Below, piece by piece: positions 113-20,796 of a stretch of 21,049 nt of DNA (within the stretch, counting starts at the first letter, position 1; every line of letters starts with the position of its first letter). Both the position numbers and the translations under genes were made by a program. The notes under the pieces were generated by a model. The model saw only the letters and a program-made list of their open reading frames with translations, was not told where the DNA came from and searched no databases. The DNA is taken from the NCBI GenBank assembly GCA_046757165.1, contig JBHHXT010000073.1, positions 1 through 21,049 on the forward strand, in the 5' to 3' direction. The stretch comes from a bacterium. GTDB taxonomy: Bacteria > Zhuqueibacterota > Zhuqueibacteria > Oceanimicrobiales > Oceanimicrobiaceae.

Positions 113-1093
113 TCAAGCCGTGGGCTGGCGAACGTATTTTTCAGGCTGGGACTCGAATTTCTGCTGACAGCCAGCGCAGCAAAAATAGAACACCGAGCCT
201 TGAAAGTCCGTTTTGTAAAGTGCGGTATCAACAGGAACGCTCATCCCGCAAATGGGATCGATTGCGCCGGGTGTCGGCGTCTGAGTTTTGTCTGCTCCAG
301 GTTCCACGACGGTGCGGCGCCGTTTGACCTCGATAATCTCCGCCAGAATACTCACGGCAATTTCCTCGGGCGTCGTGGCGCCGATGTCCAGCCCGGCGGG
401 CGCTTTCACACGCTGCCAATCATTCCTGCTGACCCCTTTATTTTTCAAGTAGTCGAAAATGGCGGTCGCTCGTTTTTTGCTGGCGATCAAGGCAATATAG
501 GGCGCCCGGGTCGACAACGCATGTTTCACCGCCTCTTCATCATAGCGGCCGTGCGTGGCAATGACGATGTGGGCGTGCGGGGAGTCTTTGATGTCGCTAA
601 GATCGAGTTCGGTGCAAAGGGTACAATTCTCAGGGAAGGAGCCCGGTGTAATCTCGGGATCGAAAACCAGGAGCTCGAAAGACATGACCTCGCCCAGGCA
701 GGCCAAAGCCTGCAAGTCGGGAGAATTGCCGATCAAAACAAGCTGCGGCTTTTGCAGCACGGGTTCGATGAAAACCTCCATGGTTCCTCCGCTGTAGCAG
801 GTCATTTCAAAATTGAGCACGTTGTTGTTTTCGCCAAACATGGCTGCTTCCGGGGCACCGATTTTGAGCAATTTCGGCACGCCGTCCTCGAGCGCTTTTA
901 GTGCTTCTCGAATCACGATTGGCTGCGCGCAGCTTCCGCCGATCCATCCGAACAGGGTTCCGTCTTGCTGGATCAGGGCTTTTGCGCCGGGCCTGGCCGA
1001 GGTGGGTTTTTCACAGCTCACCACCGTTGCGAGCACAAAGGGTTTGCGCTTCTGCCTGAGGTCGAGGATTTTTGTCAGCAACAAGTCGTCCAT
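113..1093 (-). CDS. XdhC/CoxF-family molybdenum-hydroxylase maturation protein with C-terminal YHS domain
   Basis: N-terminal XdhC/CoxI-type segment (FVLATVV...SARPGAKALI...GWIGGSC), MTCYSGGTMEVFIEP and the XdhC Rossmann part (ATHGRYDE, YIALIASKKR, APAGLDIGATTPEEIAVSILAEI). The C-terminus has the YHS/TRASH pattern DPICGMSV...FYFCCAGC. Lies downstream of coxL on the same strand. Confidence 0.9.
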   Translation of the reverse strand: MDDLLLTKILDLRQKRKPFVLATVVSCEKPTSARPGAKALIQQDGTLFGWIGGSCAQPIVIREALKALEDGVPKLLKIGAPEAAMFGENNNVLNFEMTCYSGGTMEVFIEPVLQKPQLVLIGNSPDLQALACLGEVMSFELLVFDPEITPGSFPENCTLCTELDLSDIKDSPHAHIVIATHGRYDEEAVKHALSTRAPYIALIASKKRATAIFDYLKNKGVSRNDWQRVKAPAGLDIGATTPEEIAVSILAEIIEVKRRRTVVEPGADKTQTPTPGAIDPICGMSVPVDTALYKTDFQGSVFYFCCAGCQQKFESQPEKYVRQPTA

Positions 1094-1281
1094 GTCAAGT
1101 TCAGGTTGAAATTGGAATGGGGCTTGTCCAGCGAGTCAGATGTCATTGCAAGGGCGCACCCTCCCGTGCTGCCCGGGAGAGAACTTCTTCACGTTGAAAA
1201 GCATGGGACTCGCGCAATGACAGGCCATCTCTCTTTGACAGTGCAGCCTGCCGAACTTTTGATTTTCTTGCAAAAAAATCA

Positions 1282-1392
1282 AACCGCAAAGACGCAATGA
1301 ACGCAAAGGTCAAAATATGATAGATTATTGACTGATCGTTAGAGCCCGTTTCCCAAAATTAGAACCTTTGCGAGTTTTGCGCCTTTGCGGTT
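1282..1392. repeat. Degenerate inverted repeat built from ~9-nt CGCAAAG-NN units
   Basis: AACCGCAAAGACGCAATGAACGCAAAGGT (1282-1310) matches the reverse complement of 1364-1392 (AACCGCAAAGGCGCAAAACTCGCAAAGGT) at 24/29 positions. A small hairpin ATTGCGGC-TTT-GCCGCGAT follows at 1402-1420. Confidence 0.8.
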
Positions 1393-1479
1393 AATAATTC
1401 TATTGCGGCTTTGCCGCGATTGGAAATGCTGAAGCATTTCACTCCTTGTTCATTCTGCCTTCGATGAATAGTATTTAAT

Positions 1480-1562
1480 CTCACGCAAAGAACACGGAGC
1501 GCGCAGAGTTTGTTTGTTTTTTTGACCTTCATTTCTCTGCGAACTTTGCGGCTTTGCGTGAG
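1480..1562. repeat. Second CGCAAAG/CGCAGAG-unit inverted repeat, immediately 3' of coxL
   Basis: CTCACGCAAAG...CGCAGAG (1480-1508) pairs with CTCTGCG...CTTTGCGTGAG (1535-1562) around a T-rich spacer; the outer 11 bp are perfect. Confidence 0.8.
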
Positions 1563-1571
1563 CCAATACGT

Positions 1572-3929
1572 TCATTCGACGACACCCTTCTCTTTCAGGA
1601 TCTTCCAAACCTTGTGCGGCGTGATTGGAATGTCGATGTGCTTGACGCCGAGATGGGACAACGCGTCAACCACGGCGTTGGCGATTGCCGGCGGCGCCCC
1701 GACGGTGGCGGATTCGCCGACGCCTTTGGCCCCAAGGGGATGGTGTGGCGAAGGCGTGCAGGTTTTGTCTGTCTCCCAATTGGGCGTCTCGACCGCCGTC
1801 GGGACCAAGTAATCCATCAAAGTGCCGGTCAGGCAGGTGCCCTGGTCATCGTAGATGATTTCCTCGAACAAAGCGGGCGCCAACCCCTGGGTCAGGCCGC
1901 CGTGAATCTGGCCTTCGACGATCATGGGGTTGATGATATTGCCGCAATCGTCTACGGCGACGAACCGGCGAATCTTGACTTCGCCGGTCTGGTTGTCGAT
2001 GTCAACGACGCAAACATAGCTACCGAACGGAAAAGTCAGGTTCGGGGGATCGTAGTAGGAAACGGCCTCCAGACCCGCCTCCATGCCCTGAGGATGGTTG
2101 GTGTAGGCGGCAAAGGCGACTTCCTGAATGGTTTTCGCCTTGTTGGGCGAGCCTTTCACGAAGAACTTGCCGGCTTCGTATTCCATATCTTCTTCTGCTG
2201 CTTCCAGCAGGTGGGCCGCGATCTTCTTCGCCTTGTCCCTGATTTTGCGCGAGGCCATGGCCATGGCAGCGCCGGCGGTCGGTGTGCTGCGGCTGGCGTA
2301 GGTGCCCAGGCCGTACGGACAGGTATCGGTGTCGCCATGTTCCACCACAATGTCGTCGACCGGAATGCCCAGCTCCTCGGCAATGATTTGCGCAAAGGTC
2401 GTTTCGTGGCCCTGACCCTGCGTTTGCACCCCGATGCGCGCAATGACTTTGCCCGTGGGGTGAATCCGAATCTCAGAGCTGTCGAACATCTTGAGTCCCA
2501 AAATATCGAACGTGTGAGAAGGGCCGGCTCCGACGATTTCGGTAAAGCTCGAAATGCCGATTCCCATCAGCTCACCTTTCTTGCGCTTCTCCGCTTGCTC
2601 TCTGCGCAGATCGTCATAACCGATCTTGTCCAGGGCCAGCTTCAGGGCTGCGGGATAATTACCGCTGTCATATTCCCAGCCCAAAGCGGATTTGTAGGGA
2701 AACGCCTCCGGTGGGATGAAGTTCTTCAACCGCAGCTCAGCCGGGTCCATTTTCAGCTCCTGTGCCAGGACGTCCACCATGCGCTCGATGGTGTGGACTG
2801 CTTCGGTCACGCGAAAGGAACAGCGGTAGGCGATGCCACCGGGAGGTTTGTTGGTGTAGGCCGCGTCCACCTCGGCAAAGGCATGCTTCAAGTCATAAGA
2901 CCCCGTGCAGATAGAAAACAAACCGGCGGGAAATTTGGATGGATTTGCGGCAGCATCGGTATAGCCGTGGTCCGCGATGGTTTTGATGCGCAGCGCGGTC
3001 ATGGTGCCGTCGTTCTTGGCAGCCATCTCGGCCCGGATGCGGTAGTCCCGCCCGAAGGAATCGGCTTGCAGATTCTCAGAGCGGTCTTCGATCCATTTGA
3101 CCGGGGCCCCGGTCAGGAAAGAGACCGCGACAGCAATCACATAGCCGGGATAGACCGGCACCTTGCCCCCAAATCCGCCGCCGATGTCCGGTGAGATGAC
3201 CCGGATTTTGTGCTCCGCCAAACCCACGTGTCCAGCCACAAGTGCGAAGACCGTGCGGATGGCATGCGGCGCCTGGGTGGTCATCCAGACGGTCAGCTTC
3301 TCGGTCACCTTGTCATAGCTGGCCACGCAGCCGCAGGTTTCGATCGAGCACACGTGGATTCTCGGGATGTATAATTCTTGCGCCACCTTGACGTCTGCTT
3401 CATCAAAGGCTTTGTCAGTGGCAGCTTTGTCGCCCGCCTCCCAGTGAAAAATATGATTGTCTTGCTTGCCCTCTTTGTCTGTCCGCAGCACCGGGGCGCC
3501 CGGTTTGAGCGCTTCGCGCGGATCGACGACCGGCGTCAGCGGCTCATACTCGACCTCGATCAAATCCAGTGCGTCAGCCGCGAGGTAGCGCTCTGTGGCG
3601 ATAACAGCGGCAACCTCCTGAGCATAGTACATGACTTTGTCCGTTGGCAACACCATTTGTGTATCGGACATCAGGGTTGGCATCCAGTGCAGATTGTACT
3701 TTTCCAAATCCTTCCCAGTGATAACCGCTGCGACGCCAGGCATCGCCAGGGCCTTTTCAGCATTGATGGATTTTATTTTGGCATGGGCATAAGGGCTTCT
3801 CAAGATGTCCATGTAGAGCATGCCGGGAAGCTTGACATCATCGACATAGGTCCCTTTGCCCCGAATAAACCTGGGATCTTCTTTGCGCTTGACACGGCAG
3901 CCCATTCCGCCAATTTTGGGATCCGTCAT
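1572..3929 (-). CDS. coxL: Aerobic carbon monoxide dehydrogenase large subunit, form I (Mo-Cu)
   Basis: 785-aa molybdopterin hydroxylase large subunit (RKEDPRFIRGKG, IGGGFGGK, QGQGHET, EGQIHGG, GAKGVGE). Active-site loop AYRCSFR matches the form I signature AYXCSFR. Gene order M-S-L is the form I arrangement. Confidence 0.96.
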   Translation of the reverse strand: MTDPKIGGMGCRVKRKEDPRFIRGKGTYVDDVKLPGMLYMDILRSPYAHAKIKSINAEKALAMPGVAAVITGKDLEKYNLHWMPTLMSDTQMVLPTDKVMYYAQEVAAVIATERYLAADALDLIEVEYEPLTPVVDPREALKPGAPVLRTDKEGKQDNHIFHWEAGDKAATDKAFDEADVKVAQELYIPRIHVCSIETCGCVASYDKVTEKLTVWMTTQAPHAIRTVFALVAGHVGLAEHKIRVISPDIGGGFGGKVPVYPGYVIAVAVSFLTGAPVKWIEDRSENLQADSFGRDYRIRAEMAAKNDGTMTALRIKTIADHGYTDAAANPSKFPAGLFSICTGSYDLKHAFAEVDAAYTNKPPGGIAYRCSFRVTEAVHTIERMVDVLAQELKMDPAELRLKNFIPPEAFPYKSALGWEYDSGNYPAALKLALDKIGYDDLRREQAEKRKKGELMGIGISSFTEIVGAGPSHTFDILGLKMFDSSEIRIHPTGKVIARIGVQTQGQGHETTFAQIIAEELGIPVDDIVVEHGDTDTCPYGLGTYASRSTPTAGAAMAMASRKIRDKAKKIAAHLLEAAEEDMEYEAGKFFVKGSPNKAKTIQEVAFAAYTNHPQGMEAGLEAVSYYDPPNLTFPFGSYVCVVDIDNQTGEVKIRRFVAVDDCGNIINPMIVEGQIHGGLTQGLAPALFEEIIYDDQGTCLTGTLMDYLVPTAVETPNWETDKTCTPSPHHPLGAKGVGESATVGAPPAIANAVVDALSHLGVKHIDIPITPHKVWKILKEKGVVE

Positions 3930-3933
3930 CTCC

Positions 3934-4413
3934 TCAACTCCTTGTTTTCATTTTGTTCGCAGCATAGTGAACAGACTTGACGATATTCACATAGCCGGTG
4001 CAGCGGCACAGATTGCCGGAAATCGCCTGTCGAATATCGTCTTCGGTTGGGTCAGGATTTTTAACCAGCAGCTCGGCCGCGGTCATCATCATCCCCGGTG
4101 TGCAGTAACCGCACTGCAGCCCATGTTCTTCCCAAAATCCCTCTTGCAGGGCGTGCAGTTCGCCATTTTGCTCCAGGCCTTCCACGGTTGCGATTTCCCG
4201 GCCGTTGGCCTGCACCGCAAACAGGGTACACGATTTGACCGCTTGCCCGTCTAACAAAACCGTACACGCGCCACAGTTGCTGGTGTCACAGCCAATATGC
4301 GTTCCGGTCAGGTTCAAATTCTCACGAATGAAATGAACCAGGAGCAATCTGGGCTCGACATCCGCAGAATGTTCCTGCCCGTTGACCGTGATCGTGATCG
4401 ACTTTGTGGTCAT
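3934..4413 (-). CDS. coxS: CO dehydrogenase small subunit, two [2Fe-2S] clusters
   Basis: [12 protein letters not shown]...C and LQCGYCTPG...GNLCRCTGY motifs; sits between coxM and coxL with 2- and 4-nt gaps. Confidence 0.95.
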
Positions 4414-4415
4414 GT

Positions 4416-5291
4416 CTAACTCCCTCCTTTCGCTCTGGCGACTGCTTTGTTCAAGGCCCGCCGGGTTAGGGTGTTTACCAGAGAGCGTTTATATTCTTCC
4501 GTGCCGCGCAAGTCATCGGTCGGGTCTGCCGCCGCCGCGGCCAACTTGCCCGCCTCTTTGGTCGCTGCTTCATCGGGTTTCTTCCCCAGCAGATAGTCGA
4601 TGGCGTCCCGGGCTTTGATGGGGACATTGCCCACATTGGTCAGGCCAATGCCGACGTGTTTGCACGTCCCGTCCGCGTCCAACGTAACTTGTGCGGCGAC
4701 TGCGGCGATGGCGTAATCTCCGACTTTGCGTTCCAGTTTGATGTAGGCACCGCCGCTGTTGGCAGGCGGTGTCGGAATGCGCACCTCGGTCAAGATTTCG
4801 TCAGCGCGGAGCTGCGTCGTCAGCAAGTCGACGAAAAACGCCTCGGCGGGAATGGTTCGGCTGCCGCCGGGCCCCGTTACCACCACCTGAGCTTCCAGGG
4901 CGATCATGGTGGCCGGATGGTCATTCGCCGGGTCGCCGTGCGCCAGGTTGCCGCCCACCGTGGCCATATTTCTGACCAGCGGGTCCGCGATCACCTTTGC
5001 CGTGTCGAGCAGAATGGGATAGTTCTGCGCTACGAGGTTGGATGCCTCCAGGGCCGCCTCTTTGGTCAACGCACCGATGCTCAAGTAGCCGTTCTCTTCC
5101 TTGATATGATCCAGGTCGTCGATCTGACCGATGTCGATGACATAGGGAGGTGCAGCCAGGCGAAGTTTCATCATGGGAATCAAACTGTGCCCGCCGGACA
5201 AGATTTTGGCCTCCTCTCCATATTTTGTCAGCAGGGAGAGCGCCTCAGTGAGCGAGGCCGGCGAAAAGTATTCAAATGACGGTGGAATCAT
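4416..5291 (-). CDS. coxM: CO dehydrogenase medium subunit, FAD-binding
   Basis: [11 protein letters not shown] start, [16 protein letters not shown] and [21 protein letters not shown]-binding motifs; strong SD (AAGGAGGTG) just upstream on the minus strand. Confidence 0.95.
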
Positions 5292-5446
5292 AGGCCACCT
5301 CCTTGGTTTGATGAGTGAGTCCCTGAGTTGTCAACTCGAGAACACTGATGACCCTATTATGTAAGTTACAGCGACAGTCTTTTCTTGGGATTCAGGGGTC
5401 CAGAATTAGGGTGTTCACGCTTTGGCGTGTTTTCCCCTCCACCCCA

Positions 5447-5491
5447 GCAAGCCCCGATTCCTTAATTCTATAGTAATTGAGTCGGGGCAAG
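5447..5491. repeat. Hairpin GCAAGCCCCG...GTCGGGGCAAG, nested in a looser REP-like inverted pair (about 5410-5507)
   Basis: GCCCCGATTC pairs with GAGTCGGGGC, and the inner TAATT/AATTG also pairs. The same terminal sequences recur at 12356-12405. Confidence 0.6.
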
Positions 5492-5738
5492 CTCAAGCTC
5501 GTACACCGACCTCCCCGGTCAGGAACCACTCAGTTCAGGCGATTCATGTGATTTGATCCGGAGTAAATGAGCGCCTAAGCCCCAGCGCGTCGACGCGGAC
5601 TTGGCTCAGTAGAGAGTTCCCTGCGGGCGGGAAAAGGGACGATATTCCACACGGATCAAAAACCCACACGGATTTCTCAAATCAAATTAAATTAAGATAG
5701 TCTTCCGTGTCTGCGTCCCTAATACGATTGACAACAAA

Positions 5739-6185
5739 TTATTTTGATCGTTCGGCGAGCTGTTTTTCCAGGGATTTGAAACCTTGATTCACAAACATCT
5801 TGGCCGCTGCGCCAACAATTCTCTGACCCACCGCAGCAATGGGGCCACCGATTTGATTGCTGGCCGTGTAGTGGAGCCGGGTTTCGTCGCCCTGCGCCTC
5901 GAGCCGGATGAAGACCTCACCGTTTAGAAAGCCACGAGCGCCCTTTCCTGCCAGTGTTAATCGAAAGCTTTCAGGCGGGTCTTTGTCCAGAAGTCTGATG
6001 GCTGTCGAGTAAACTCCCTTGACCGCCGCAATCCCGATGGTCATTTTTGCGTCATACGCGTCCTCTGCAACCTCTTCCATTTGTTCACATCCCGGAATGG
6101 CGTTGGCGATGACCTCTGGGTCCATCAGCAGCTCCCAAACCTGCTGGCGCGGCGCTGACAAAACATGTGAGCCTTCCAAATTCAT
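5739..6185 (-). CDS. coxG: CoxG-like protein (SRPBCC/START fold), without a C-terminal membrane anchor
   Basis: 148 aa; APRQQVWELLMDPEVIANAIPGCE and QIGGPIAAVGQRIVGAAAK are typical of CoxG. AAGGA SD upstream; adjacent to coxMSL. Confidence 0.88.
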   Translation of the reverse strand: MNLEGSHVLSAPRQQVWELLMDPEVIANAIPGCEQMEEVAEDAYDAKMTIGIAAVKGVYSTAIRLLDKDPPESFRLTLAGKGARGFLNGEVFIRLEAQGDETRLHYTASNQIGGPIAAVGQRIVGAAAKMFVNQGFKSLEKQLAERSK

Positions 6186-6522: not shown

Positions 6523-6569
6523 TTAAAATAATAAAAAACCTTGACATTCTTCGTCCTATTTGTTACACT
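6523..6569 (+). promoter_or_regulatory. Strong sigma70-type promoter for the radical SAM cluster
   Basis: TTGACA (6541-6546), 17-nt spacer ending in TGn (extended -10), TACACT (6564-6569), preceded by an A-rich UP-like tract TTAAAATAATAAAAAA. Confidence 0.78.
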
Positions 6570-6862: not shown

Positions 6863-7870
6863 ATGAGTGGGACAGTGGCCGAAACTGTTTTTCGCACCAG
6901 TAAGCTTTGTGGTGATTCTGTTCGTGATCTGAATATCCTCGAAATTCATATGGAGTCGCCTTATACCATCGTGAAGTTGACGAATGGCGACCTGGGCGTC
7001 GCCTTCAACTTTGATCATGAATCGCAGCCCTTCAAGATATGTGAAAATCGACACAACTGGCCAGCCATAGCGACGGGGTTGCTAGATAGAGCCCGGACTG
7101 ATACGCTGCTAACCGACCACGAACCCAGGGAACTCTACGAGCTTTCAGTGCAGGTTGCAACCTCGAGTGCCCTGTCTCAGAGCCAGAATATCCGCGATAA
7201 GGATCTTGCTGACAATGGACTCATTGTTGACGACTTTCCGATCCCACTGGCAGACATTTCTAGAAAGGGAGACACGGTTAGTGTTATCGGTTTTGGGGGC
7301 TATTTCTGTCAAGCGCTATATGACCCCAATGTGCACCAGGTTCTTGTGTCGGATCTTTTGTTGAGTAGATCTTCAGAGATGCAGGAGAACGCTGCCAGGT
7401 TTCTGCAACAGTTTCCGAATAAGCTGCAATTCTTTGACGACGCTGTCAGCAGCGAAGCCATCGTGTTAGAGGCGGACGTGGCGTGCATTACTGCCTCCGC
7501 GCTGTGCAATGGAACGATGGATGGCCTGCTGCAAGCGGCCCGAGAGGGAAAGTGTCGTGAGGTGATCGTGTATGGCCATAGCGGTGGAATGCTCTCAGGT
7601 CCGCTTTTTGAACATGGGGTCACGATCCACCTCAGGCCCAGAATCAAAAGAGCCTTTCTCGCTGAGACGAAGAAGTTCATGTCAAGAATCAAAGACCCTG
7701 AAGTTCGGTCGGTTGTCAGGACGGTACTGCAAGAGGACAATTTTTATGATTTTATTGACGTTAACCTCAAAGCTGTTACCGTGAAAGAAAAACCAATCTC
7801 CTTTGCAAAGATCAGGCGATCTTTGAAGAAGAAAACAACAAATGGGCTTCACTGTTCATGTATTATTTGA
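6863..7870 (+). CDS. DUF364-like protein (N-terminal enolase-like domain plus Rossmann-like domain; family proposed to act in heavy-metal chelation)
   Basis: 335 aa; YTIVKLTNGDLGVAF in the N-domain, TVSVIGFGG, and ADVACITASALCNGTMDGLL...VIVYGHSGG...LFEHGV, resembling the DUF364 pattern ITG(S/T)xxxNGTxxxLL...GPS...LFxxGV. Overlaps the next start codon by 13 nt. Confidence 0.72.
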   Translation: MSGTVAETVFRTSKLCGDSVRDLNILEIHMESPYTIVKLTNGDLGVAFNFDHESQPFKICENRHNWPAIATGLLDRARTDTLLTDHEPRELYELSVQVATSSALSQSQNIRDKDLADNGLIVDDFPIPLADISRKGDTVSVIGFGGYFCQALYDPNVHQVLVSDLLLSRSSEMQENAARFLQQFPNKLQFFDDAVSSEAIVLEADVACITASALCNGTMDGLLQAAREGKCREVIVYGHSGGMLSGPLFEHGVTIHLRPRIKRAFLAETKKFMSRIKDPEVRSVVRTVLQEDNFYDFIDVNLKAVTVKEKPISFAKIRRSLKKKTTNGLHCSCII

Positions 7871-9432
7871 AAAACAAAGAAGTTCAAGAACTATCTGAGA
7901 TCGTACATTTCGAGACAGAATATGACCAAACCTTGCCTTATTTTGCCGATCTGAATTCAACTCTTCAAGCCAACAGCTTGCTCGAGCTCGTGAGCGGTCT
8001 GCAAATCATCCCGGGCAGTGCGGATTCCAGTCTGTTTTGGCATCCGGATACCGCCATGTGGTGTTATGTTGATTCGAATGAAATGCACGTTTGTCAAGAG
8101 TTAGAGCAGACCATTAGATTCTCCACTCTGCAACAGAGATTCCCTCAGTACCGGCGCGAAGATGTAACGAAACTCCTGACTCATTTGTATCGACGCGGCT
8201 TGTTGAAGATTGACGACCAGCCAGGTCTGGATCCCGGCTTTTGTGAAAACGCCCCTTTGTTCAAGAAAGCATATCTGGTTGAGTTGTACATGACGGAAAA
8301 ATGTAACCTGGGGTGCAAGTACTGCTTTGCTGAGGCCGCGCCGGACAATTCGACCATGCCTGTGGAAATCGGCTACCTGGCGATAGATAAGGCCTTTGCG
8401 TTGCCTGCAACGAGGTTTATCATCGAATTCGCAGGCGGTGAGACTTTTGTCGAGTTCGGGACCTTTCAGCGCCTGGTCGAATACATCGCGGTGAAGAAAA
8501 AGCAAACCGGCAAAGATCCGCAAATTGTGGTGCAGTCGAATGGCACGTTGTATCACAAGTCACACATCCGCAAGTTCATTCTAAGACACAACATCATCAC
8601 CGGCGTTAGCATCGATGGGCCGCCAGAGGTACAGAATGCCGTCCGACCAACCGCAGGCGGAAAAGAGAGCTCCGACGCTGTGTTGCGAGGAATCAAGGCG
8701 CTGCAGAAGACGGGCTTTGAGGTCGCTACCATCACGACAGTCAATCGAGCGAATGTCGATAGACCGGAAGAAATTGTAGATTATTTTGTGTCCCGGAATA
8801 TCCACTACGGCCTTTTCAAAGAGATGCTAGGGTTAGGACGCGCCGAAGCGTCGTGGCATGAGCTGGCCGTTGGGCCCGAGGAGTTTTTTGAGTTCATCAA
8901 ACGGGTTCTGGAATACACGACTGAAAACAACATCTTTTTCAGAGATTTGACCACCAAGCGGCTGATCAGGAACCTGCTCGTACGAACACGTAGTTTCCGG
9001 TGCATGCGCTCGCCTTGCAACGCTGGCGTCGACTATTTTGTCATTCGTCCAAACGGAGATATTTATCCGTGTGCGGATCACGTCAGACCGGAGCTGAAAA
9101 TGGGAAACATCAAAGACCCTGAGCCCTTGCACGTTTGCTTTGAGAAACAGCCGACCGTCGTTGAAATGAAGTGCCATCGCAGTGTCAAGAATATTCCCGG
9201 CTGTCGGAGTTGCGACTGGCGACACCTGTGCGAAGCGGAATGTGGCCTGGCTGCTTTGAAAAGCTACGGTACGTTATACCACGCATCCCCCAAGTGCCAG
9301 TTCTACAAAATGGTGTATCCCTATCTGCTGGGATTTTCTCAAAAACATCCAGAGGTGATTTGTGATTATTGGGAAAACGCCGAGGTGGTGAGGTTCAGTC
9401 TCGTGAACGACAAGGGGTCTCTCGAGGCATAA
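7858..9432 (+). CDS. Radical SAM/SPASM peptide maturase 1 with N-terminal RRE (PqqD-like) domain
   Basis: CNLGCKYC (CxxxCxxC), FAGGE, QSNGT and VSIDG. SPASM cysteines: CMRSPC, GDIYPC, CRSCDWRHLCEAEC and a final C. The ~135-aa N-terminal extension has an RRE-like pattern (FWHPDTAMWCYV...LLTHLYRRGLL). Confidence 0.9.
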   Translation: MYYLKNKEVQELSEIVHFETEYDQTLPYFADLNSTLQANSLLELVSGLQIIPGSADSSLFWHPDTAMWCYVDSNEMHVCQELEQTIRFSTLQQRFPQYRREDVTKLLTHLYRRGLLKIDDQPGLDPGFCENAPLFKKAYLVELYMTEKCNLGCKYCFAEAAPDNSTMPVEIGYLAIDKAFALPATRFIIEFAGGETFVEFGTFQRLVEYIAVKKKQTGKDPQIVVQSNGTLYHKSHIRKFILRHNIITGVSIDGPPEVQNAVRPTAGGKESSDAVLRGIKALQKTGFEVATITTVNRANVDRPEEIVDYFVSRNIHYGLFKEMLGLGRAEASWHELAVGPEEFFEFIKRVLEYTTENNIFFRDLTTKRLIRNLLVRTRSFRCMRSPCNAGVDYFVIRPNGDIYPCADHVRPELKMGNIKDPEPLHVCFEKQPTVVEMKCHRSVKNIPGCRSCDWRHLCEAECGLAALKSYGTLYHASPKCQFYKMVYPYLLGFSQKHPEVICDYWENAEVVRFSLVNDKGSLEA

Positions 9433-9445
9433 GGAAGGGCGAAAA

Positions 9446-11062
9446 ATGTTTTATCTGAAGAACAGCGACCTTGCGCAGCTTTTTGAAATTGTGTTATTGG
9501 AGAACGCTTTTGATCAAGAGCTGCCTTATTTTGCTGAGCCTGAGCTGACGCCCGCGACCGTCTTGCATCTGACGAACGCGACACTGCAAGCTAAAGATGA
9601 CGGGCACGCCCTGATCTGGAATCCTGAAACGGGGACCTGGTGCTTCATCAGCCCAATGGAATATCCCGTGTGCCAGTCAATGATGGAGCCGATTCGATAT
9701 GGCGAGCTGAGGCAGAAACACCGACTGCAACACGGTGACCAGGACATTGAGTTGACGGAATTCCTGACTCACCTCTACCAACGCGGCTTGCTCGCGTTAG
9801 ACGGCCAGCAGGGCATCGACCAGGACATTTATGCAAATGGGCCTTTGTTCACCGAAGCATTTATTCTGGAGCTGATGCTGACCGAAAAATGTAATCTCGG
9901 CTGCGCGTATTGCTTTGCTGAGGCGGATAACAGCAAAGATGACATGACTTTGGAGCTGGGCAAGCGTGCAATCGACAAAATGCTTGCTCTTCCTGACCAG
10001 AGCTTTGTTGTCAAATTTGGTGGCGGCGAGCCGCTTTCCAGGTTTCGCACCCTGATTCAGTTGGTCGAGTATGCTTTACAAGCGAACAAAACCCAGAGGG
10101 CGGAGGAAGCCGCTATTCTCTTTGACATCACGACCAACGGAACTCTGATCACGGACCGGGTTGTCGAGGCACTAAGGTGCTACCCGATAAGGCTGCAGAT
10201 CAGTTTCGACGGTTTACCTGAAATCCATGATACGGTCAGATATTACCTCAATGGTAAGGGCTCGAGCAGGGATGTGGTGGCGGCATTTAGCGAACTGCAT
10301 CAGAATGAACTCCCGTTTCGGGTGATCACGGTTGTCAGAGGACCACACATCCCAAAAGCAAAAGACCTTTTTCGATACTACGATGATCTGGGAATCAAGC
10401 ACGTTCGGTTCAATCCCATGATCCGGTCCGGTCGCGGCAGTTTCGTCGAGCAACAACATGGCATCACGCCGGAAAGCTATTTCCATTTCATGCAGCAGCT
10501 CGTTGAACACATGGCTGAGCATTTGACCTTCAGTGACGACTCCATCCAATCGATGGTGCGGAATTTGGTCGGTCGCACGCGTGATTTCAGGTGTATGCGC
10601 GGAACGTGTGGTGCCGGCATCACCTATCTCAACGTTGATGCGAAAGGCAACCTTCACCCGTGCGCTTATTTCCGCTCCGCTTCCCGGCACGTTGACCTGG
10701 GGAATGTGGAATCAAATGATTTGTCTTTTCACGCATGCTGCAAGAATGATCCGATTGTGACCAGAATGGCACAGCGCACGGTTCATACGATTGCCAGGTG
10801 CTCGAGATGTCCCTGGCGCCATGTCTGCACCGGTGGCTGCGCCATGGGGGCCTATCAGAAATATGGTAATTTTGACCATCCTTCTGATTTATGCGACTAT
10901 TATGTCAAGATGTACCCGTTTCTGCTGGACACGTTGCACCACACGCCCGAATTGGCAACATTCTTACTGCCAGACATAGAGCAGTGTATGCCAGCCGGCA
11001 TTCCTGCCTCGCCAGCAAATTCCAGGAAGGAGGTGATAGCAAACGCGCAGCAATCGGTTTAG
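9446..11062 (+). CDS. Radical SAM/SPASM peptide maturase 2 with N-terminal RRE domain, paralog of maturase 1
   Basis: CNLGCAYC, FGGGEP, TTNGT and ISFDG. SPASM cysteines: CMRGTC, GNLHPC, CSRCPWRHVCTGGC and a final C. RRE-like IWNPETGTWCFI...FLTHLYQRGLL. AAGGAAGG SD at 9431-9438. Confidence 0.9.
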   Translation: MFYLKNSDLAQLFEIVLLENAFDQELPYFAEPELTPATVLHLTNATLQAKDDGHALIWNPETGTWCFISPMEYPVCQSMMEPIRYGELRQKHRLQHGDQDIELTEFLTHLYQRGLLALDGQQGIDQDIYANGPLFTEAFILELMLTEKCNLGCAYCFAEADNSKDDMTLELGKRAIDKMLALPDQSFVVKFGGGEPLSRFRTLIQLVEYALQANKTQRAEEAAILFDITTNGTLITDRVVEALRCYPIRLQISFDGLPEIHDTVRYYLNGKGSSRDVVAAFSELHQNELPFRVITVVRGPHIPKAKDLFRYYDDLGIKHVRFNPMIRSGRGSFVEQQHGITPESYFHFMQQLVEHMAEHLTFSDDSIQSMVRNLVGRTRDFRCMRGTCGAGITYLNVDAKGNLHPCAYFRSASRHVDLGNVESNDLSFHACCKNDPIVTRMAQRTVHTIARCSRCPWRHVCTGGCAMGAYQKYGNFDHPSDLCDYYVKMYPFLLDTLHHTPELATFLLPDIEQCMPAGIPASPANSRKEVIANAQQSV

Positions 11063-11097
11063 AGGGGAAATCTTTAACAATTAAGGAGATGAAACCA

Positions 11098-11568
11098 ATG
11101 TCCGAGAAAAAGAATGAGAAACAAGACCGCAGAACCTTTCTCAAAGGCGCGGCCCTGGCAAGTGCGGTCGTCATCCTGGAGGGTCCATCTGCTGTTGCGC
11201 AGGAGAGACTAACCAAAGTGCAGCAGAAGAAAAAAGTCCTCTGGGCTGTTCCGCCTCCGCCAGGTGACAATGCGCCTGAGGACGACCTCGAGGAGCTTCA
11301 GCCTTTAATGAAAGCAGCACTCGGCGAAGCCATGTCAAAAGCGGAAGCGGTGATTGAAAAGATGGTCAGGTCCGGAGGCAAGACTAAGACGCTGAATATT
11401 TCCAAGGCATTGGCCGCCGAGGGGTTGACACTGAGAAGCCCCGGAGCCAGAAAGGCAGCCACCACCATCAAAGTTCCTGCTATCATAACGAAGAAGGCCA
11501 GGGAGGCGAAAGCTGAGGGCTGGCATCTTCATGGCCAGATCTCTCAGCATACCCATATGACCTGGTAA
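11098..11568 (+). CDS. Putative RiPP-type precursor A1 (156 aa) with Tat signal and C-terminal core WHLHGQISQHTHMTW
   Basis: AAGGAG at 11083-11088 is 9 nt before ATG 11098 (an in-frame ATG at 11089 is too close to the SD). DRRTFLK twin-arginine motif, hydrophobic GAALASAVVIL, AVA|QE signal peptidase site. Lies directly after two RRE-SPASM enzymes and has a close paralog downstream. Confidence 0.8.
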   Translation: MSEKKNEKQDRRTFLKGAALASAVVILEGPSAVAQERLTKVQQKKKVLWAVPPPPGDNAPEDDLEELQPLMKAALGEAMSKAEAVIEKMVRSGGKTKTLNISKALAAEGLTLRSPGARKAATTIKVPAIITKKAREAKAEGWHLHGQISQHTHMTW

Positions 11569-11655
11569 TTAAGGATGTGTGTGGGATGGTATAGACGAAT
11601 GGGTAAACCCGAATTTGAATCAACGACGGTTCATCCCCTCTGAACCGTGATTATT

Positions 11656-11755
11656 CAGGTAGATAGGCTGTAGAGGCTGTAGGAAGAATCGACGCGTTGG
11701 ATTTGAGCATTGCGCAAAACCGAACAGCCTAATTGCCTACAGTCTAAACACCTGA
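11656..11755. repeat. Imperfect inverted repeat with AGGCTGT/ACAGCCT-type units between the two precursor genes
   Basis: TCAGGTAGATAGGCTGTAG (from 11656) versus CTACAGTCTAAACACCTGA (ending 11755; reverse complement TCAGGTGTTTAGACTGTAG), plus extra AGGCTGT/ACAGCCT copies. Confidence 0.6.
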
Positions 11756-11852
11756 TAGTTACTCAGAACCTATTCAAACTGATTGAATTCTATTCGCTAA
11801 GAGCCAATTGACATAAGCCAATCGCTCAACTTAGATTATGGAGATGAAACCA

Positions 11853-12320
11853 ATGTCCGAGAAAAAGAATGAGAAGCAAGATCGCAGAACCTTTCTCAAA
11901 GGTGCGGCCCTGGCAAGTGCAGTTGTCATCCTGGAGGGTCCGGCTGCAGCTCAGGAGAGACTAACCAAATCGCAGCAGAAGAAGAAAGTCACCTGGGCCG
12001 TTCCTCCTCCACCAGGTGATAATGCGCCTGAGGACGACTTCGAGGAGCTTCAGGCTTTGGTACAAGCGGCAGTCGGCGAAGCCATGTCAAAAGTGGAGGC
12101 GGTGATTGAGAAGATGGTCAGATCCGCGGGCAAGGCTAAAACGCTGAATATTTCCAAGGCGTTGGCTGCCGAGGGGTTGACCCTGAAAAGCCCCGGAGCC
12201 AGAAAAGTGGCCGTCACCATCAAAGTTCCTGCCATCATCATGAAGAAGGCCCGGGAGGCGAAAGCTGAGGGCTGGCATATTCATTCCAGCGCTTCGGCGC
12301 ATAGCCATACGACCTGGTAA
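11853..12320 (+). CDS. Putative RiPP-type precursor A2 (155 aa) with Tat signal and C-terminal core WHIHSSASAHSHTTW
   Basis: GGAG at 11840-11843; first 30 aa identical to A1, including DRRTFLK. By manual alignment there are about 15 substitutions and 1 indel before the last 15 residues, but 7 of the last 15 differ. In-frame ATGs at 11838 and 11844 are alternative starts. Confidence 0.8.
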   Translation: MSEKKNEKQDRRTFLKGAALASAVVILEGPAAAQERLTKSQQKKKVTWAVPPPPGDNAPEDDFEELQALVQAAVGEAMSKVEAVIEKMVRSAGKAKTLNISKALAAEGLTLKSPGARKVAVTIKVPAIIMKKAREAKAEGWHIHSSASAHSHTTW

Positions 12321-16533: not shown

Positions 16534-18285
16534 TTACTCCTGCTCAAAAATCCCCTTTAGATGATACAGGTTATTGCTTGATTCTAACCTCATCATGCTC
16601 CAGTGCTTCTCGTCAGCAATCGTGGGGACCTGCTCCAGGGGTGTGAATGTTAACTCCGGGATGGGTTTGTATCCGCTCAGTTTCATGAACAGGGTCAGAG
16701 GCAGGCCAACTTCCGCCTTGTAAGAGAATGGCGTTGGACGAGGAAATTTCTTGCGGTTAATATAAACCGTTGCACCCTGTGGCGCTGAATCTATTCTAAT
16801 TTCTTTCTTGAACCGTACCAGAACGGCGGAGCCGGAAGCTATGGTTTCGTTGCCGACCTTGAGGCTCCCGTTCCTTAGTACGCTGACGGATTTCTCGGCT
16901 GGCTCAAAGCCCTCCCTGGACAACATCAGGTGATGCGTTCCGGTTACTATCCTGGCAATCTCGACAGGTGTTTCTTGTGGCAGCGGTTGGCCATCCCAAA
17001 TCACCCGGGCGCCCCCCGGCACAGACTCGATGATTAGCGATGAAGGATAGAGCTGGCTGTAAAGGGTCTCTCCAAACCGGGTCCACTTATATGAAAAATC
17101 CAAAGCGCTGAACGCAAGAAAGAGAACCAGAACCGATATCAGGCCCACGATCGCTGCTTTTTTGTGCGACCGGGCAGTGTGTCGCATGACATCGATCACC
17201 GTGATTGATTCCTGGCTCGGCCTCGCTTGAAAAATCATGGAGTGGGATCTGACTTCTTGTGCCGCATTCTCTGCACGGCTGGCCGCCTCCGGGCTTGCGA
17301 CCCTCTCCTTTTTCGCTTGCAGCACACTTTTCTTGTCGGGTTCTTTCGCCGGTTGGTTCAACCCTTGTGCAAAATCGCGCAGCTTTTCATCCAGGGCCCA
17401 GACCTGTCGCGATCTGAGGAATTGAGACAGGTCCTGATACAGGTCCCGCGCCGATTGGTATCTTTCATCTCTTCTCTTTCTCAAGCTCTTCCTGAGGATG
17501 GTTTCCAGAGCATTTGGAATTTCGGCTTCCTTCAAGCTCCCCGCATCAAGGTCAACAGAGGTGATTTCTGTCATGATGTCATAGGCGTGCTCTCTTTTGA
17601 AGAGTCGATCTCCAGTCAGCAGTTCATAAAAGATGACGCCCAATGAGAAAATATCCGACCGCCTGTCCAATGCCACGCCGCGCAGGATGTGCTCCGGAGA
17701 CAAATAGGTCCACTTATCCCGGCGCGTCTTTACATCCACAACTTCGCTCGAGCTGAGTTTCCACTTGGCGGGGCCAAAATCTATCAGCTTCACCTCGCCC
17801 TTGAATGAGATGAGTATGTTGGAAGGGTCGATATTTCCGTGAAGAATGTTCAGGGGTTTATGGGACCTGATATCCTTTAGATTATGGGCATAGTCCAGCG
17901 CTTTGGCGACCTCCGCAACAATATGCACCATCAAATCGAGCTGCAGCTTCCTGCGCAAGAGTTTGCAGATGGTCAGAATACTTTTCAAATCCAACCCATC
18001 GACAAATTCCATAATAGAATAAAAGGTGCCATCCTCGGTCCGACGCAGGTCATACATCTGTACGATGTTCGCATGAGTGAGCTTTGCCGCATTGCGGGCC
18101 TCCTCGACGAACCGATCAACAGAAGTCTTGTCTGTCAGCAAATTGGAATGAATCTTCTTGATGGCGACCGGTTTCTGCAAGGCTCGATCGAGGCCGTAAT
18201 AGAGTACGCTCAATCCGCCTTCTTTGATCTTCGAAACAAGTTCATATTTTCCATCAAGGATAGATCGCGTCCGGATTTTTGTCAT
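16534..18285 (-). CDS. Hanks-type Ser/Thr kinase-like membrane protein with two PEGA-like domains; probable pseudokinase
   Basis: VAIKK, RFVEEA, HANIVQ, IMEFVDG, DFG, YLSPE and SDIFSLG are present, but the catalytic loop reads HGNIDPSN. TM helix AAIVGLISVLVLFLAFSAL. PEGA patterns IESVPGGARVIWDG...TP and IDSAPQGATVYIN...TP. Confidence 0.85.
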   Translation of the reverse strand: MTKIRTRSILDGKYELVSKIKEGGLSVLYYGLDRALQKPVAIKKIHSNLLTDKTSVDRFVEEARNAAKLTHANIVQMYDLRRTEDGTFYSIMEFVDGLDLKSILTICKLLRRKLQLDLMVHIVAEVAKALDYAHNLKDIRSHKPLNILHGNIDPSNILISFKGEVKLIDFGPAKWKLSSSEVVDVKTRRDKWTYLSPEHILRGVALDRRSDIFSLGVIFYELLTGDRLFKREHAYDIMTEITSVDLDAGSLKEAEIPNALETILRKSLRKRRDERYQSARDLYQDLSQFLRSRQVWALDEKLRDFAQGLNQPAKEPDKKSVLQAKKERVASPEAASRAENAAQEVRSHSMIFQARPSQESITVIDVMRHTARSHKKAAIVGLISVLVLFLAFSALDFSYKWTRFGETLYSQLYPSSLIIESVPGGARVIWDGQPLPQETPVEIARIVTGTHHLMLSREGFEPAEKSVSVLRNGSLKVGNETIASGSAVLVRFKKEIRIDSAPQGATVYINRKKFPRPTPFSYKAEVGLPLTLFMKLSGYKPIPELTFTPLEQVPTIADEKHWSMMRLESSNNLYHLKGIFEQE

Positions 18286-18353
18286 TTTCAGATCAAGATA
18301 TGTTCCTGAATGAGCCCATCCCCATTCGGGTGCTGAAATGGTGGCTGGCCGTC

Positions 18354-19808
18354 CTACTCCCGGTCCTGAGCCTCCAATTTGAAAAGGCGGCTCCCGGCCT
18401 TTTGATAATAGAGGTAGGTTGGGTCCGGAGCAACTTGCATCGCCTGTTCATAGTAGCCAATCGCTTTCGGGATATTCCTGATGGTCGGTTCTTTCTCGAA
18501 TCGATATCCTTCGATGAACAACTCCTTGGCTCTCAGCTTTTGCGCCTCCGTCAATATCACTCTTGCTTTGGGTGGGGTGATAGTCAGGGACACCACCCGG
18601 GAAGCCGTCATGCCGGACTCATCCCCCACAGATACGGTGACCTTGTCCTGGTGGTCTGCAGGAACCTCCATCGGAGCCGTATATGTCACTTCACTGTCCA
18701 GGCCCGTAATCGTGCCCAATAGCGCGCTCCATTCATAGCGTAGAAGTTCAGGGTTCGGGCCCCCCGCGACCACAGTCAACCGGCTTTGCTCGCCCGTAGT
18801 CAGAGTGGACTTTTCTGCTGTCAGCTTCACAATCTTTACGGGCGCACGTTTGCGTTTAGATCTTGCTTCTTGTTCGGCGCGCCGGGCCAGCTCGTTTTTC
18901 TGCCGGAGCTGTTCATATCGCTGAACGTGCTCCAAATAGCTCAATGCCACCTTGTTTTCGGGATGCCGTTCAAGCACCCGGTTGATTTTTCTCCGGGAGT
19001 CTTTGTAACGTCCCTTGGCAAAATCGTGCTTTGCTGCACCCAGCAATTCCTGAACTTGCAGCCTGGCTTCAGCTTCTGATTTGAGTTTCAGGGCTTGCTC
19101 ATGATTGGAATCCAGGCGGAGAACCTCATCAAATCTCTCTATCGCTTGTTGAAGTTCTTTTACATTGTCACTTTGACCGAGGAAAGCTGCTGCCGTGCAA
19201 ATATTGTCGATTCTGATTCTCTCATGCACCTCCTCGATCAGGTCGATCACCTCTTGATTTCTCGGGTCGACAGCCAAAGCCACCTCCAGCTCGACCAGGG
19301 CGTCGTTATACAAGGCTCGTTTGTAATACTTGTTGGCGGTGCTCCAGTAGGGTTCTACCGTTCCGTGCTTTTCTGATCTTGTTGCAAAAAAGAAAACGAA
19401 ACTCCCAACAACAGCCACGGCCAGGAAGGGGACAATGTAGCCCCATCGCGACCTTGATCGATTAGGGTCAAATCGGCGATCCAACCAGGGTCGTCTCAGA
19501 GCTTTGCCCTTTTCATTCAGCAGCGCCACGGTCAAAGTTGTGTTTCCTATTTCAATGACGTCATGATGGCGCAGAAGCAGCTCTCCGGTGATCAGATGTC
19601 CATTCACCCGGGTGCCATTGCGGCTGCCGAGGTCTCTCAGGTAAACCGACCCGGCGACCGTTTTGATCTCTGCGTGGGTGGTTGAAGCCAGGTCGTCATC
19701 GAGATGAACACCGTTTTCCGGACTCCGGCCGATGATTACGGCGCCACCGGAAACCGTGTAATGCTTGCCCGTGCCAGGACCCTGGGTAACCGTCAATCTT
19801 ACTTTCAT
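18354..19808 (-). CDS. FHA domain - TM - TPR repeats - Ig-like domain membrane protein
   Basis: FHA phosphothreonine-binding motifs are intact (IGR, STTH, DLGSRNGT). TM WGYIVPFLAVAVVGSFVFFFA. TPR-like helices (ALAVDPRN, VLRLDSNH, VLERHPEN, AMQVAPDP). Beta-rich module LRYEWSA...VTYTAP...VTVSVGD. Confidence 0.85.
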   Translation of the reverse strand: MKVRLTVTQGPGTGKHYTVSGGAVIIGRSPENGVHLDDDLASTTHAEIKTVAGSVYLRDLGSRNGTRVNGHLITGELLLRHHDVIEIGNTTLTVALLNEKGKALRRPWLDRRFDPNRSRSRWGYIVPFLAVAVVGSFVFFFATRSEKHGTVEPYWSTANKYYKRALYNDALVELEVALAVDPRNQEVIDLIEEVHERIRIDNICTAAAFLGQSDNVKELQQAIERFDEVLRLDSNHEQALKLKSEAEARLQVQELLGAAKHDFAKGRYKDSRRKINRVLERHPENKVALSYLEHVQRYEQLRQKNELARRAEQEARSKRKRAPVKIVKLTAEKSTLTTGEQSRLTVVAGGPNPELLRYEWSALLGTITGLDSEVTYTAPMEVPADHQDKVTVSVGDESGMTASRVVSLTITPPKARVILTEAQKLRAKELFIEGYRFEKEPTIRNIPKAIGYYEQAMQVAPDPTYLYYQKAGSRLFKLEAQDRE

Positions 19809-19815
19809 CTGTTTT

Positions 19816-20796
19816 CTACTTCTGCTTCTCTGTTTTCTGCTCTAAGATTCTCGATTCCTGGATTAAGAAATAATCATTCACGGAAAAATCGGGCGGCGTC
19901 GTTGCTGTGACAACAAACAATAGCTCCGAGTTATCTTGCATCTTCTTTTCCCTTCGGAACAGCATCGGGAGAATATCCCCGAGGATGGGGACTTTGGATA
20001 CCGACGAGCCGCGGGAAGTTTTCTTGAGGCCACCCAATATTGACGTGCCACCGTTTTCAACCGATATGGTGCTCTCTGCGGTTCTGGAGGCCAACGCCGG
20101 CTGCCCGGCAATCGGACTGATTTCACTTGCTTCGGTGTGGATCTTGACCAGGATATCACCGGACCCCTGAATTTTCGGACTCACCTCCAGCTTGACGCCA
20201 AACTCCTTGAAAATAGTCACCGCAAATCCATCCGGTCCCACTTCATTGAACGGAAACTCGCCGCCGATCAGGATCTTGCCGGATTCACCGTCGACCGTGG
20301 TAATTCTTTCATTATAAACGACCTCGGCATTTCCTTTGGTCACCCAATAGGAAACGGCGCTGAGAATATTAGACTCCAGCACCAGGTTGGTGGTCACCCC
20401 CTCGAATCCTTTCTCGAGGCCAGCGGCAAATCTGGCCTGAGGGTTGTATTCGGCAAAAGCGCTCCGGCTCACGCTCACGATCAGAATTGAAATCCCGATT
20501 TGGTATTTCTTCGTCCTGTCCACCACCAGATTCACGACCTCTCCCTCGGGGTAAAGGGCCATGATCTTTTCGAACCTCTGAATATCGACATGCGTATAGA
20601 TTTCCCCCTCGACGACGACTTTGCTCCCTGCCTGACGAAAGGTCAACCCCTCGACGTCTTGCAGCAGACTCATCAGCTCCTGAATCGTCACCTCCGTCTC
20701 CTGCGCCGATAGCGCCAGTGAGAAGAGGTGACCTGTCAAGACAATCGTGACCAAACTCATCAGTTTGGCCAGGGAACGAGTTGCATTGTTTTTCAT
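19816..20796 (-). CDS. Compact outer-membrane secretin (type II/III secretin domain, RcpA/CpaC-like)
   Basis: Signal peptide ending LSA|QE, a short BON-like segment (VVVEGEIYT...VVNLV), then secretin C-domain motifs IGGEFPF, FKEFGVKLEVSPKI, ILGGL, SKVPILGDI and SELLFVVT. Confidence 0.82.
   Translation of the reverse strand: MKNNATRSLAKLMSLVTIVLTGHLFSLALSAQETEVTIQELMSLLQDVEGLTFRQAGSKVVVEGEIYTHVDIQRFEKIMALYPEGEVVNLVVDRTKKYQIGISILIVSVSRSAFAEYNPQARFAAGLEKGFEGVTTNLVLESNILSAVSYWVTKGNAEVVYNERITTVDGESGKILIGGEFPFNEVGPDGFAVTIFKEFGVKLEVSPKIQGSGDILVKIHTEASEISPIAGQPALASRTAESTISVENGGTSILGGLKKTSRGSSVSKVPILGDILPMLFRREKKMQDNSELLFVVTATTPPDFSVNDYFLIQESRILEQKTEKQK

Follow-up and report, generated by a model that had tools for sequence, protein, structure and literature searches.

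Precursor proteins with predicted twin-arginine signals beside paired radical SAM/SPASM enzymes: a probable case of peptide modification followed by Tat export

Organization of the locus

The window considered here is the whole of a 21,049-nt stretch (contig JBHHXT010000073.1 of assembly GCA_046757165.1, positions 1 to 21,049, forward strand) from a bacterium of the family Oceanimicrobiaceae, Zhuqueibacterota. Seven genes in its middle lie on one strand (+): a DUF364/DUF4213 gene (6863..7870), two enzyme genes designated B1 (7858..9432) and B2 (9446..11062), two precursor genes designated A1 (11098..11568) and A2 (11853..12320), and two genes for Reg_prop beta-propellers, P1 (12599..14542) and P2 (14539..16515). 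The DUF364 gene overlaps the start of B1 and is likely the first gene of the operon. Upstream of the operon there is a sigma-70-like promoter match at 6541..6569 (+ strand, 10/12, extended -10), which is a consensus match only, and 12 sigma-70-like sites were found against 8.1 expected by chance. A1 and A2 are separated by a 284-nt spacer (11569-11852); since another such consensus-only match (11808-11837) lies within it, A2 may have its own promoter. The start of P2 overlaps the stop of P1 (ATGA), and both propellers have N-termini that appear by eye to be of the Sec type.

A1 encodes a protein of 156 aa, in which a predicted signal is followed by a variable linker, a conserved helical body (about residues 60-140), a KxxG motif and a predicted core of the form W-H-x-H ... 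H-x-H-x-T-W (residues 142-156, 11521..11565, + strand). A2, with 155 aa, is 85% identical to A1, although its core (12273-12317) differs. A1 is preceded by an AAGGAG ribosome-binding site at 11083-11088; an upstream in-frame ATG at 11089 was rejected as the start because it overlaps this site and because homologs start in the 11098 register. The AlphaFold model of A1 has a mean pLDDT of 59 with a disordered core, and no fold match was found for this low-confidence model. The ESM Atlas likewise held no family for A1.

The dedicated transporter that the preliminary description reported missing was indeed not found among the 15 ORFs of the window that were scanned, and no protease family was matched among them either. 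Gene context is available for three loci. The absence of both rests on the window together with the 13.4-kb stretch of a related locus, L090, in which no protease gene was found; the third locus, L088, ends 400 bases after its precursor gene.

The radical SAM/SPASM enzymes

B1 (524 aa) is a radical SAM/SPASM protein that has eight SPASM cysteines and starts with an RRE-type domain of three strands and three helices, and B2 (538 aa) is a protein of the same class with 35% identity to it. By Pfam matches and alignment, the CX3CX2C cysteines (C149/153/156) are invariant and the SPASM cysteines are conserved. The model of B1 (pLDDT 94) contains the N-terminal beta3-alpha3 domain and has CteB, anSME and TigE as its best fold matches, with an alignment to CteB over 484 columns. 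B1 and B2 have the features of RRE-dependent radical SAM/SPASM maturases. Neither has a PqqD-family Pfam match. Both score below the cut-off of every curated family, the best matches being HxsB, anSME, DynA and PapB, and PADLOC returned generic viperin-type radical SAM matches and nothing else.

B1 has 152 homologs at E <= 1e-40, and a profile of 59 of these was used to fetch related loci, most of which, among the matches listed, were distant radical SAM loci. Five loci were taken as members of the family (L007, L008, L088, L089 and L090) and three as outgroups (L009, L031 and L139); L087 and L091-L093 were left out because their sequences are not long enough for a precursor to be seen. A tree of 92 enzymes places B1 and B2 in separate, well-supported ortholog clades (0.998 and 0.999). 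Each of these clades includes an enzyme from L088, which suggests two distinct reactions. The enzymes of L007 and L008 form a sister clade (support 0.895), and the root of the Tat-linked enzyme clade is weakly supported (0.51). Because L007 and L008 have precursors without an RR motif beside their enzymes, the motif is unlikely to be an enzyme recognition site.

L007 (1448-3532, Gaiellaceae) has a sister-clade enzyme followed by an RR-free precursor of 125 aa, which is NHLP-like at its start and rich in H-x-D motifs. L008 (25-5056, Marinobacter) has a 200-aa precursor with four repeats carrying HVN and HAN beside its family enzyme, and also encodes an aKG-HExxH beta-hydroxylase. In L089 (1001-7041) the precursor contains two WHDFPECxH repeats, and the locus also encodes a double radical SAM protein similar to HxsC and two family enzymes that are more distantly related.

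The twin-arginine signal and its conservation

The predicted Tat signal peptides span residues 1-34 of A1 (11098..11199, + strand) and residues 1-33 of A2 (11853..11951, + strand). The preliminary description had seen a twin-arginine signal in both copies, and all of its parts are present: an Asp directly before RRTFLK, a hydrophobic stretch, and an AxA site before Gln. In A1, RRTFLK occupies residues 11-16 (11128-11145) and is followed by GAALASAVVIL-E-GPSAVA and then QE, as read from the translation of 11098-11202 (residues 1-35), so that the predicted site is AVA before Gln. A2 is identical to A1 over residues 1-30, with RRTFLK at 11883-11900, and reads GPAAA before QE, giving an AAA site. 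Among 34,818 internal 35-residue segments from 3,448 long ORFs of the host genome, RRxFLK occurred 3 times, and the motif with an h-region as good as that of A1 and A2 occurred 4 times; the pattern is therefore not a chance one. The profile scores lie close to their cut-offs. The two copies reached 16.6/16.7 bits with TIGR01409 (cut-off 16.7) in the scan of the window ORFs and 18.4/18.2 bits, above the cut-off and at ranks 8 and 9 among 22, in the genome-wide scan, while with PF10518 they scored 21.0/20.9 bits, below the cut-off of 22.7.

A homolog search with A1 as a single protein gave no matches beyond the two copies in the window, and relatives of the precursor were reached through the enzymes instead. 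L088 has two enzymes and then a 162-residue protein with SRRSFLR that scores above the TIGR01409 cut-off, and in L090 a 173-residue protein with ERRAFLS, followed by an h-region and AHA, is surrounded by three enzymes. Both of these RR precursors were reached by enzyme homology alone, with no use of the signal. A four-sequence profile was then run against 1.84 billion proteins and gave 12 matches, all 12 with the motif; a second round gave 17. The final alignment (A5) holds 26 members of 151-230 aa, which form 9 groups at 50% identity and 5 at 40%. One sequence (P0134), RR-bearing and apparently frameshifted, was left out of it, and P0148 represents the cluster of P0127. For seven further precursors the length of the longest contig equals that recorded for a family enzyme, an indirect sign of linkage.

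The preliminary description had made the Tat reading depend on conservation of the RR motif in homologs, and the motif is conserved in nearly all of them, with RR in 25 of the 26 members and KR in the remaining one. This natural KR variant is the type II precursor P0147. The Phe of the motif is invariant (26/26), at least 13 uncharged residues follow the RR in 24 members, and TIGR01409 matches 22 of them (E <= 5). In 17 members Gln is preceded by a small-x-Ala site, while the other 9 have no clear site of this kind. Column conservation averages 0.79 for RRxFLK, as against 0.37 for the n-region and 0.39 for the linker; the averages for the h-region, the body and KxxGW are 0.62, 0.47 and 0.85. 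With their signals removed, 22 of 22 homologs still scored 59-103 bits against the four-sequence profile, where the weakest reported match scored 36, so relatives without a signal would have been detected. NCBI lists one member, from an Acidobacteriota bacterium, under the name of a twin-arginine signal protein.

The precursor family is rare. Searches of 166 other genomes from the host phylum, of 251, 401 and 351 sampled genomes of three other groups (part of the candidates scored), of 5 single genomes and of viral contigs did not turn it up.

Core motifs and predicted chemistry

The precursors fall into two subtypes, which are homologous without the signal as well (hhalign E 2e-5). Type I has 11 members, including A1 and A2, and its cores begin with WHxH (11/11) and continue through a loop of variable length to HxHx[ST]W (9/11), the remaining two having HxN and HxD in its place. 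All 15 members of type II carry HSN, HxNH and [YH]SD-Y[ST]D-WW. By eye, several type I cores (P0125, P0130 and P0131) have a variable loop with paired Cys and with turns of Asn-Gly or Phe-Gly, which suggests a beta-hairpin that would place the four His on one face. Between A1 and A2, 7 of the 15 core codons change the amino acid, a pattern of conserved leader and variable core: codons 1-30 differ by 6 synonymous and no amino-acid changes, against 1 synonymous and 7 amino-acid changes in the core (Fisher p = 0.005 for signal versus core; 0.051 for signal versus body).

An E-G-W or K-G-W precedes the core, and there is no double-glycine site. Models of the NHLP clan gave weak matches, to three models in 1-2 of the 26 members (best E 3e-4), and comparison of the body with NHLP leaders by hhalign was not significant (E 0.06-0.15). 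Thioether chemistry of the ranthipeptide kind was rejected for A1 and A2, whose cores have no Cys.

The H-x-H-x-S/T spacing of the type I cores is that of the fused rings of darobactin. Darobactin is described as a bicyclic scaffold (PMC9055067). Links from His and Tyr at position i to position i+2 are reported for HaaB, YxdB, YhhB and MicB, and aromatic-x-x motifs on His or Tyr are given as substrates of three-residue cyclophane enzymes (PMC11002830, PMC12912966). Should the cores be modified, i to i+2 cross-links would by comparison with these enzymes be roughly an even bet. The proposed chemistry is an analogy, because B1 and B2 both stay below every curated cut-off.

Relation to known systems

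The nearest system, as we read it, is the HXS anti-phage system (HxsA/B/C/D), in which two radical SAM enzymes are reported to mature a signal-peptide protein with His motifs that reaches the periplasm (PMC13128918). The signal of HxsA was predicted to be of the Sec type and did not export GFP, and its export was called non-canonical in the same report (PMC13128918). HXS would thus be both a precedent and a warning for the Tat-export reading. It also bears on the view, held at the outset, that the known signal-peptide RiPPs have Sec-type signals and enzymes other than radical SAM proteins: the part on the signals stands for HXS, but the part on the enzymes does not, as HXS uses a radical SAM pair (PMC13128918). 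What it shares with the cluster in the window is a pair of radical SAM enzymes next to a substrate that has a signal peptide, and HxsB is the best NCBIfam match of B1 (E 9e-46). However, HxsB scores 157 bits for B1 and 124 bits for B2 against a cut-off of 370, HxsC is absent from the best 25 matches of either enzyme, and the scan of 15 ORFs (small ORFs left out) turned up no HxsD-type partner, no peptidoglycan-binding domain and no array of HxS repeats. The RR motif is conserved in the A1/A2 family, whereas the HxsA signal is described as Sec-type, and the partners here are beta-propellers.

The triceptide enzymes (HaaB, YxdB, YhhB, OscB, MicB) are likewise reported as radical SAM/SPASM proteins, acting on aromatic-x-x core motifs such as HxH, HxS/T, HxN and YxD, which the cores of the A1/A2 family also contain. 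Yet the scores of B1 and B2 fall well short of this class (GrrM/OscB 81/110 bits against 310, YhhB 106 against 445, AmcB far below its cut-off), and the A1/A2 family differs in its precursors of 151-230 aa, its Tat signal, its paired enzymes and the lack of a protease or transporter in the cluster. Judged by sequence, the family belongs to neither HXS nor the triceptides. With the daropeptides and dynobactins it shares a spacing of aromatic-x-aromatic-x-x, present twice here as H-x-H-x-S/T, which could give fused rings, and DynA is among the top matches of B1 and B2 (131 and 145 bits). These scores are nevertheless below the cut-offs (DynA 450, DarE 650), the residue is His and not Trp, and there is no dedicated transporter.

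Proteusins and other RiPPs with NHLP leaders have a long helical leader before a C-terminal core and several radical SAM enzymes (NCBIfam TIGR03793, TIGR04509, NF038399). The helical body before the core and the several radical SAM enzymes, one of them B12-dependent in L090, resemble this arrangement, but a double-glycine site and a C39/ABC exporter are lacking, and a Tat signal stands in front of A1 and A2. The system of the window thus falls outside HXS, the curated triceptides and the proteusins, and appears to work like each of them in part. As to the route, halocin C8 is a ribosomal peptide whose precursor leaves through Tat, and the preprint, as far as it was available, does not describe it as modified by a radical SAM enzyme (bioRxiv 10.64898/2026.07.27.741052). 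No natural radical-SAM RiPP exported by Tat was found in the literature searched, which left out most subscription papers.

Mode of export and form of the product

It is probable, on the strength of the sequence evidence, that A1 and A2 are cross-linked in the cytoplasm by B1 and B2, likely from i to i+2, and then exported by Tat, and the conservation described above supports this reading. The precursors would be kept in the cytoplasm during this step, with B1 and B2 binding to their conserved helical body and not to the RR motif, as suggested by sister enzymes that serve precursors without RR. The two enzymes would form i to i+2 links from His (or Tyr in type II) to the beta-carbon of His, Asn, Asp, Ser or Thr, and the two enzyme clades might make different rings. 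Tat could retain the chain in the cytoplasm long enough for this and then pass the rigid product. The housekeeping translocase (TatABC) would carry the precursor to the periplasm, where signal peptidase would cut at the AxA site and leave Gln35 at the N-terminus. The host genome (99.98% complete) has tatC on contig C1 and two tatA/B genes on C8, and its Omp85 genes point to an outer membrane.

Work on lanthipeptides offers some guide to this route. Sec is reported to have moved lanthipeptide fusions before they were modified, being too fast and too narrow for ring-bearing peptides, and an attempt by the same group to send lanthipeptides through Tat failed (PMC5686179). Modified nisin has been displayed through Tat by another group in an artificial setting, and so a ring-bearing RiPP can, by that account, pass Tat after cytoplasmic modification (PMC11048544, citing Hetrick 2018).

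The cluster lacks a protease gene, and so the product would probably be a periplasmic protein of about 120 residues with a cross-linked tail. Alternatively, the precursor may be modified and exported through Tat in the same way and then cut near KxxG before Trp by an unlinked periplasmic protease, which would free a 15-residue peptide; the product would then be a small RiPP of the conventional kind that leaves the cell by an uncommon route. This differs from the preferred reading in the final form only and shares part of its probability. The K-x-x-G-W stretch before the core is the best conserved of the family (0.85), and the characterised triceptides are reported to be cut just before their first ring motif (PMC12912966). 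However, neither the cluster nor the 13.4 kb of L090 has a protease gene, the precursors have no double-glycine site, and the only C39 match of the host is a stand-alone domain on another contig. We regard release of a short peptide as possible but somewhat unlikely.

The beta-propellers, whose genes had escaped the preliminary description, may be partners of the product outside the cytoplasm. They are likely part of the cassette because L090 has a related one (two of two loci with enough downstream DNA): a signal-peptide protein directly after its enzymes whose Reg_prop half, compared with the proteins of the host genome, matches P2 best, at 211 bits, then P1 at 191, the next match being at 106. 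The L090 protein is a fusion of a PQQ-type and a Reg_prop propeller. Also encoded in L090 (2089-13402, type II) are a HEAT-repeat protein with a membrane anchor, a radical SAM protein that binds B12 and the third of the family enzymes. In amine dehydrogenases a small subunit with cross-links is paired with a large subunit that forms a propeller. By analogy, a periplasmic complex might be assembled here by two routes, in which a small subunit that retains its leader arrives through Tat with a tail of fused His-His/His-Ser rings and is bound by propellers exported by Sec, to serve as a metal site, a catalytic cofactor or an effector of envelope defence. We consider a complex of this kind unlikely, if worth stating.

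The RR segment might have no part in export and act instead in recognition, delay or membrane tethering, with a product that stays in the cytoplasm or leaves by an enzyme-assisted, non-canonical route like that of HxsA. The failure of the HxsA signal to export GFP, with a cleavage that is reported to need the radical SAM enzymes (PMC13128918), gives this some weight, as do the 9 of 26 members without a clear AxA-Gln site. The HxsA signal is however described as Sec-type and has no RR. The three regions of the signal also persist together in 5 to 9 divergent groups whose flanking n-region and linker drift, and the sister enzymes of L007 and L008 stand beside RR-free precursors, so the motif is not needed by the enzymes. 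A role of the RR segment other than export is, in our view, quite improbable.

Even with the family as a whole exported by Tat, A1 and A2 themselves could be exported poorly or not at all. A short h-region with a Glu in it had been raised as a caveat from the start, and this was borne out: Glu28 (11179-11181, inside the h-region) limits the uncharged run to 11 residues in both copies. The TATFIND rule calls for at least 13 uncharged residues in the h-region. A1 and A2 alone among the 26 members have a Glu at this place, the corresponding residue being Thr in the closest homolog (56% identical), and they alone have a run below 13; their profile scores, as noted, lie at the cut-offs. On the other side, codons 1-30 keep their residues through 6 synonymous changes, and the hydrophobicity over 13 residues (1.74) is inside the family range of 1.52-2.12. 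Runs below 13 also occur in 5 of the 22 Tat-like signals of the host genome, including that of an FAD oxidoreductase which, by its sequence, likewise has a Glu in an 11-residue run. We regard poor or absent export through a signal weakened by Glu28 as very unlikely. That A1 and A2 are unmodified, Tat-exported, His-rich metal-binding proteins, with the radical SAM enzymes acting on something else, is just as hard to credit: alternating His could all lie on the same side of a hairpin, a protein of the DUF364 ('putative heavy-metal chelation') family heads the operon and B1 and B2 also resemble the protein-modifying anSME, but both enzymes carry an RRE-type domain, the leader is conserved while 7 of 15 core codons change the amino acid, type II cores have His/Tyr-x-Asn/Asp motifs with a period of three, the propellers would by their Sec-type signals leave the cytoplasm unfolded, and no DUF364 gene was found in the related loci examined.

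Modification in the cytoplasm followed by Tat export is thus the reading that we favour, and it would have some consequences if true. Mining for RiPPs takes it for granted that the precursor is small, that a protease removes the leader and that export has a transporter of its own. Precursors of 150-230 residues may have been overlooked or labelled merely as twin-arginine signal proteins, as one member of the family is. Borrowing of Tat would be another way to keep oxygen-sensitive chemistry inside the cytoplasm and still place the product outside it, and it raises the question of whether modification gates Tat export. The enzyme family, with its 152 homologs, is uncharacterised and likely makes His-centred cross-links. 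The system could also serve as a natural template for the secretion of cross-linked peptides from engineered cells.

Flanking genes

Convergent on the cassette, and on the - strand, genes for a secretin, an FHA-TPR protein and a Ser/Thr kinase with PEGA domains occupy 16534-20796. Through the predicted secretin, proteins of the periplasm might be secreted further. On the other side, also on the - strand, an operon of the aerobic CO dehydrogenase type (113-6185) comprises coxG, genes for the medium, small and large subunits, and a XdhC/CoxI-YHS maturation gene. The large subunit scores 1257 bits with TIGR02416 (cut-off 991) and contains AYRCSFR, which we take to be the signature of form I CO dehydrogenase. 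An inverted repeat of 29 nt (83% complementary, 53-nt spacer) lies in the intergenic region after the large-subunit gene, at 1282-1392.
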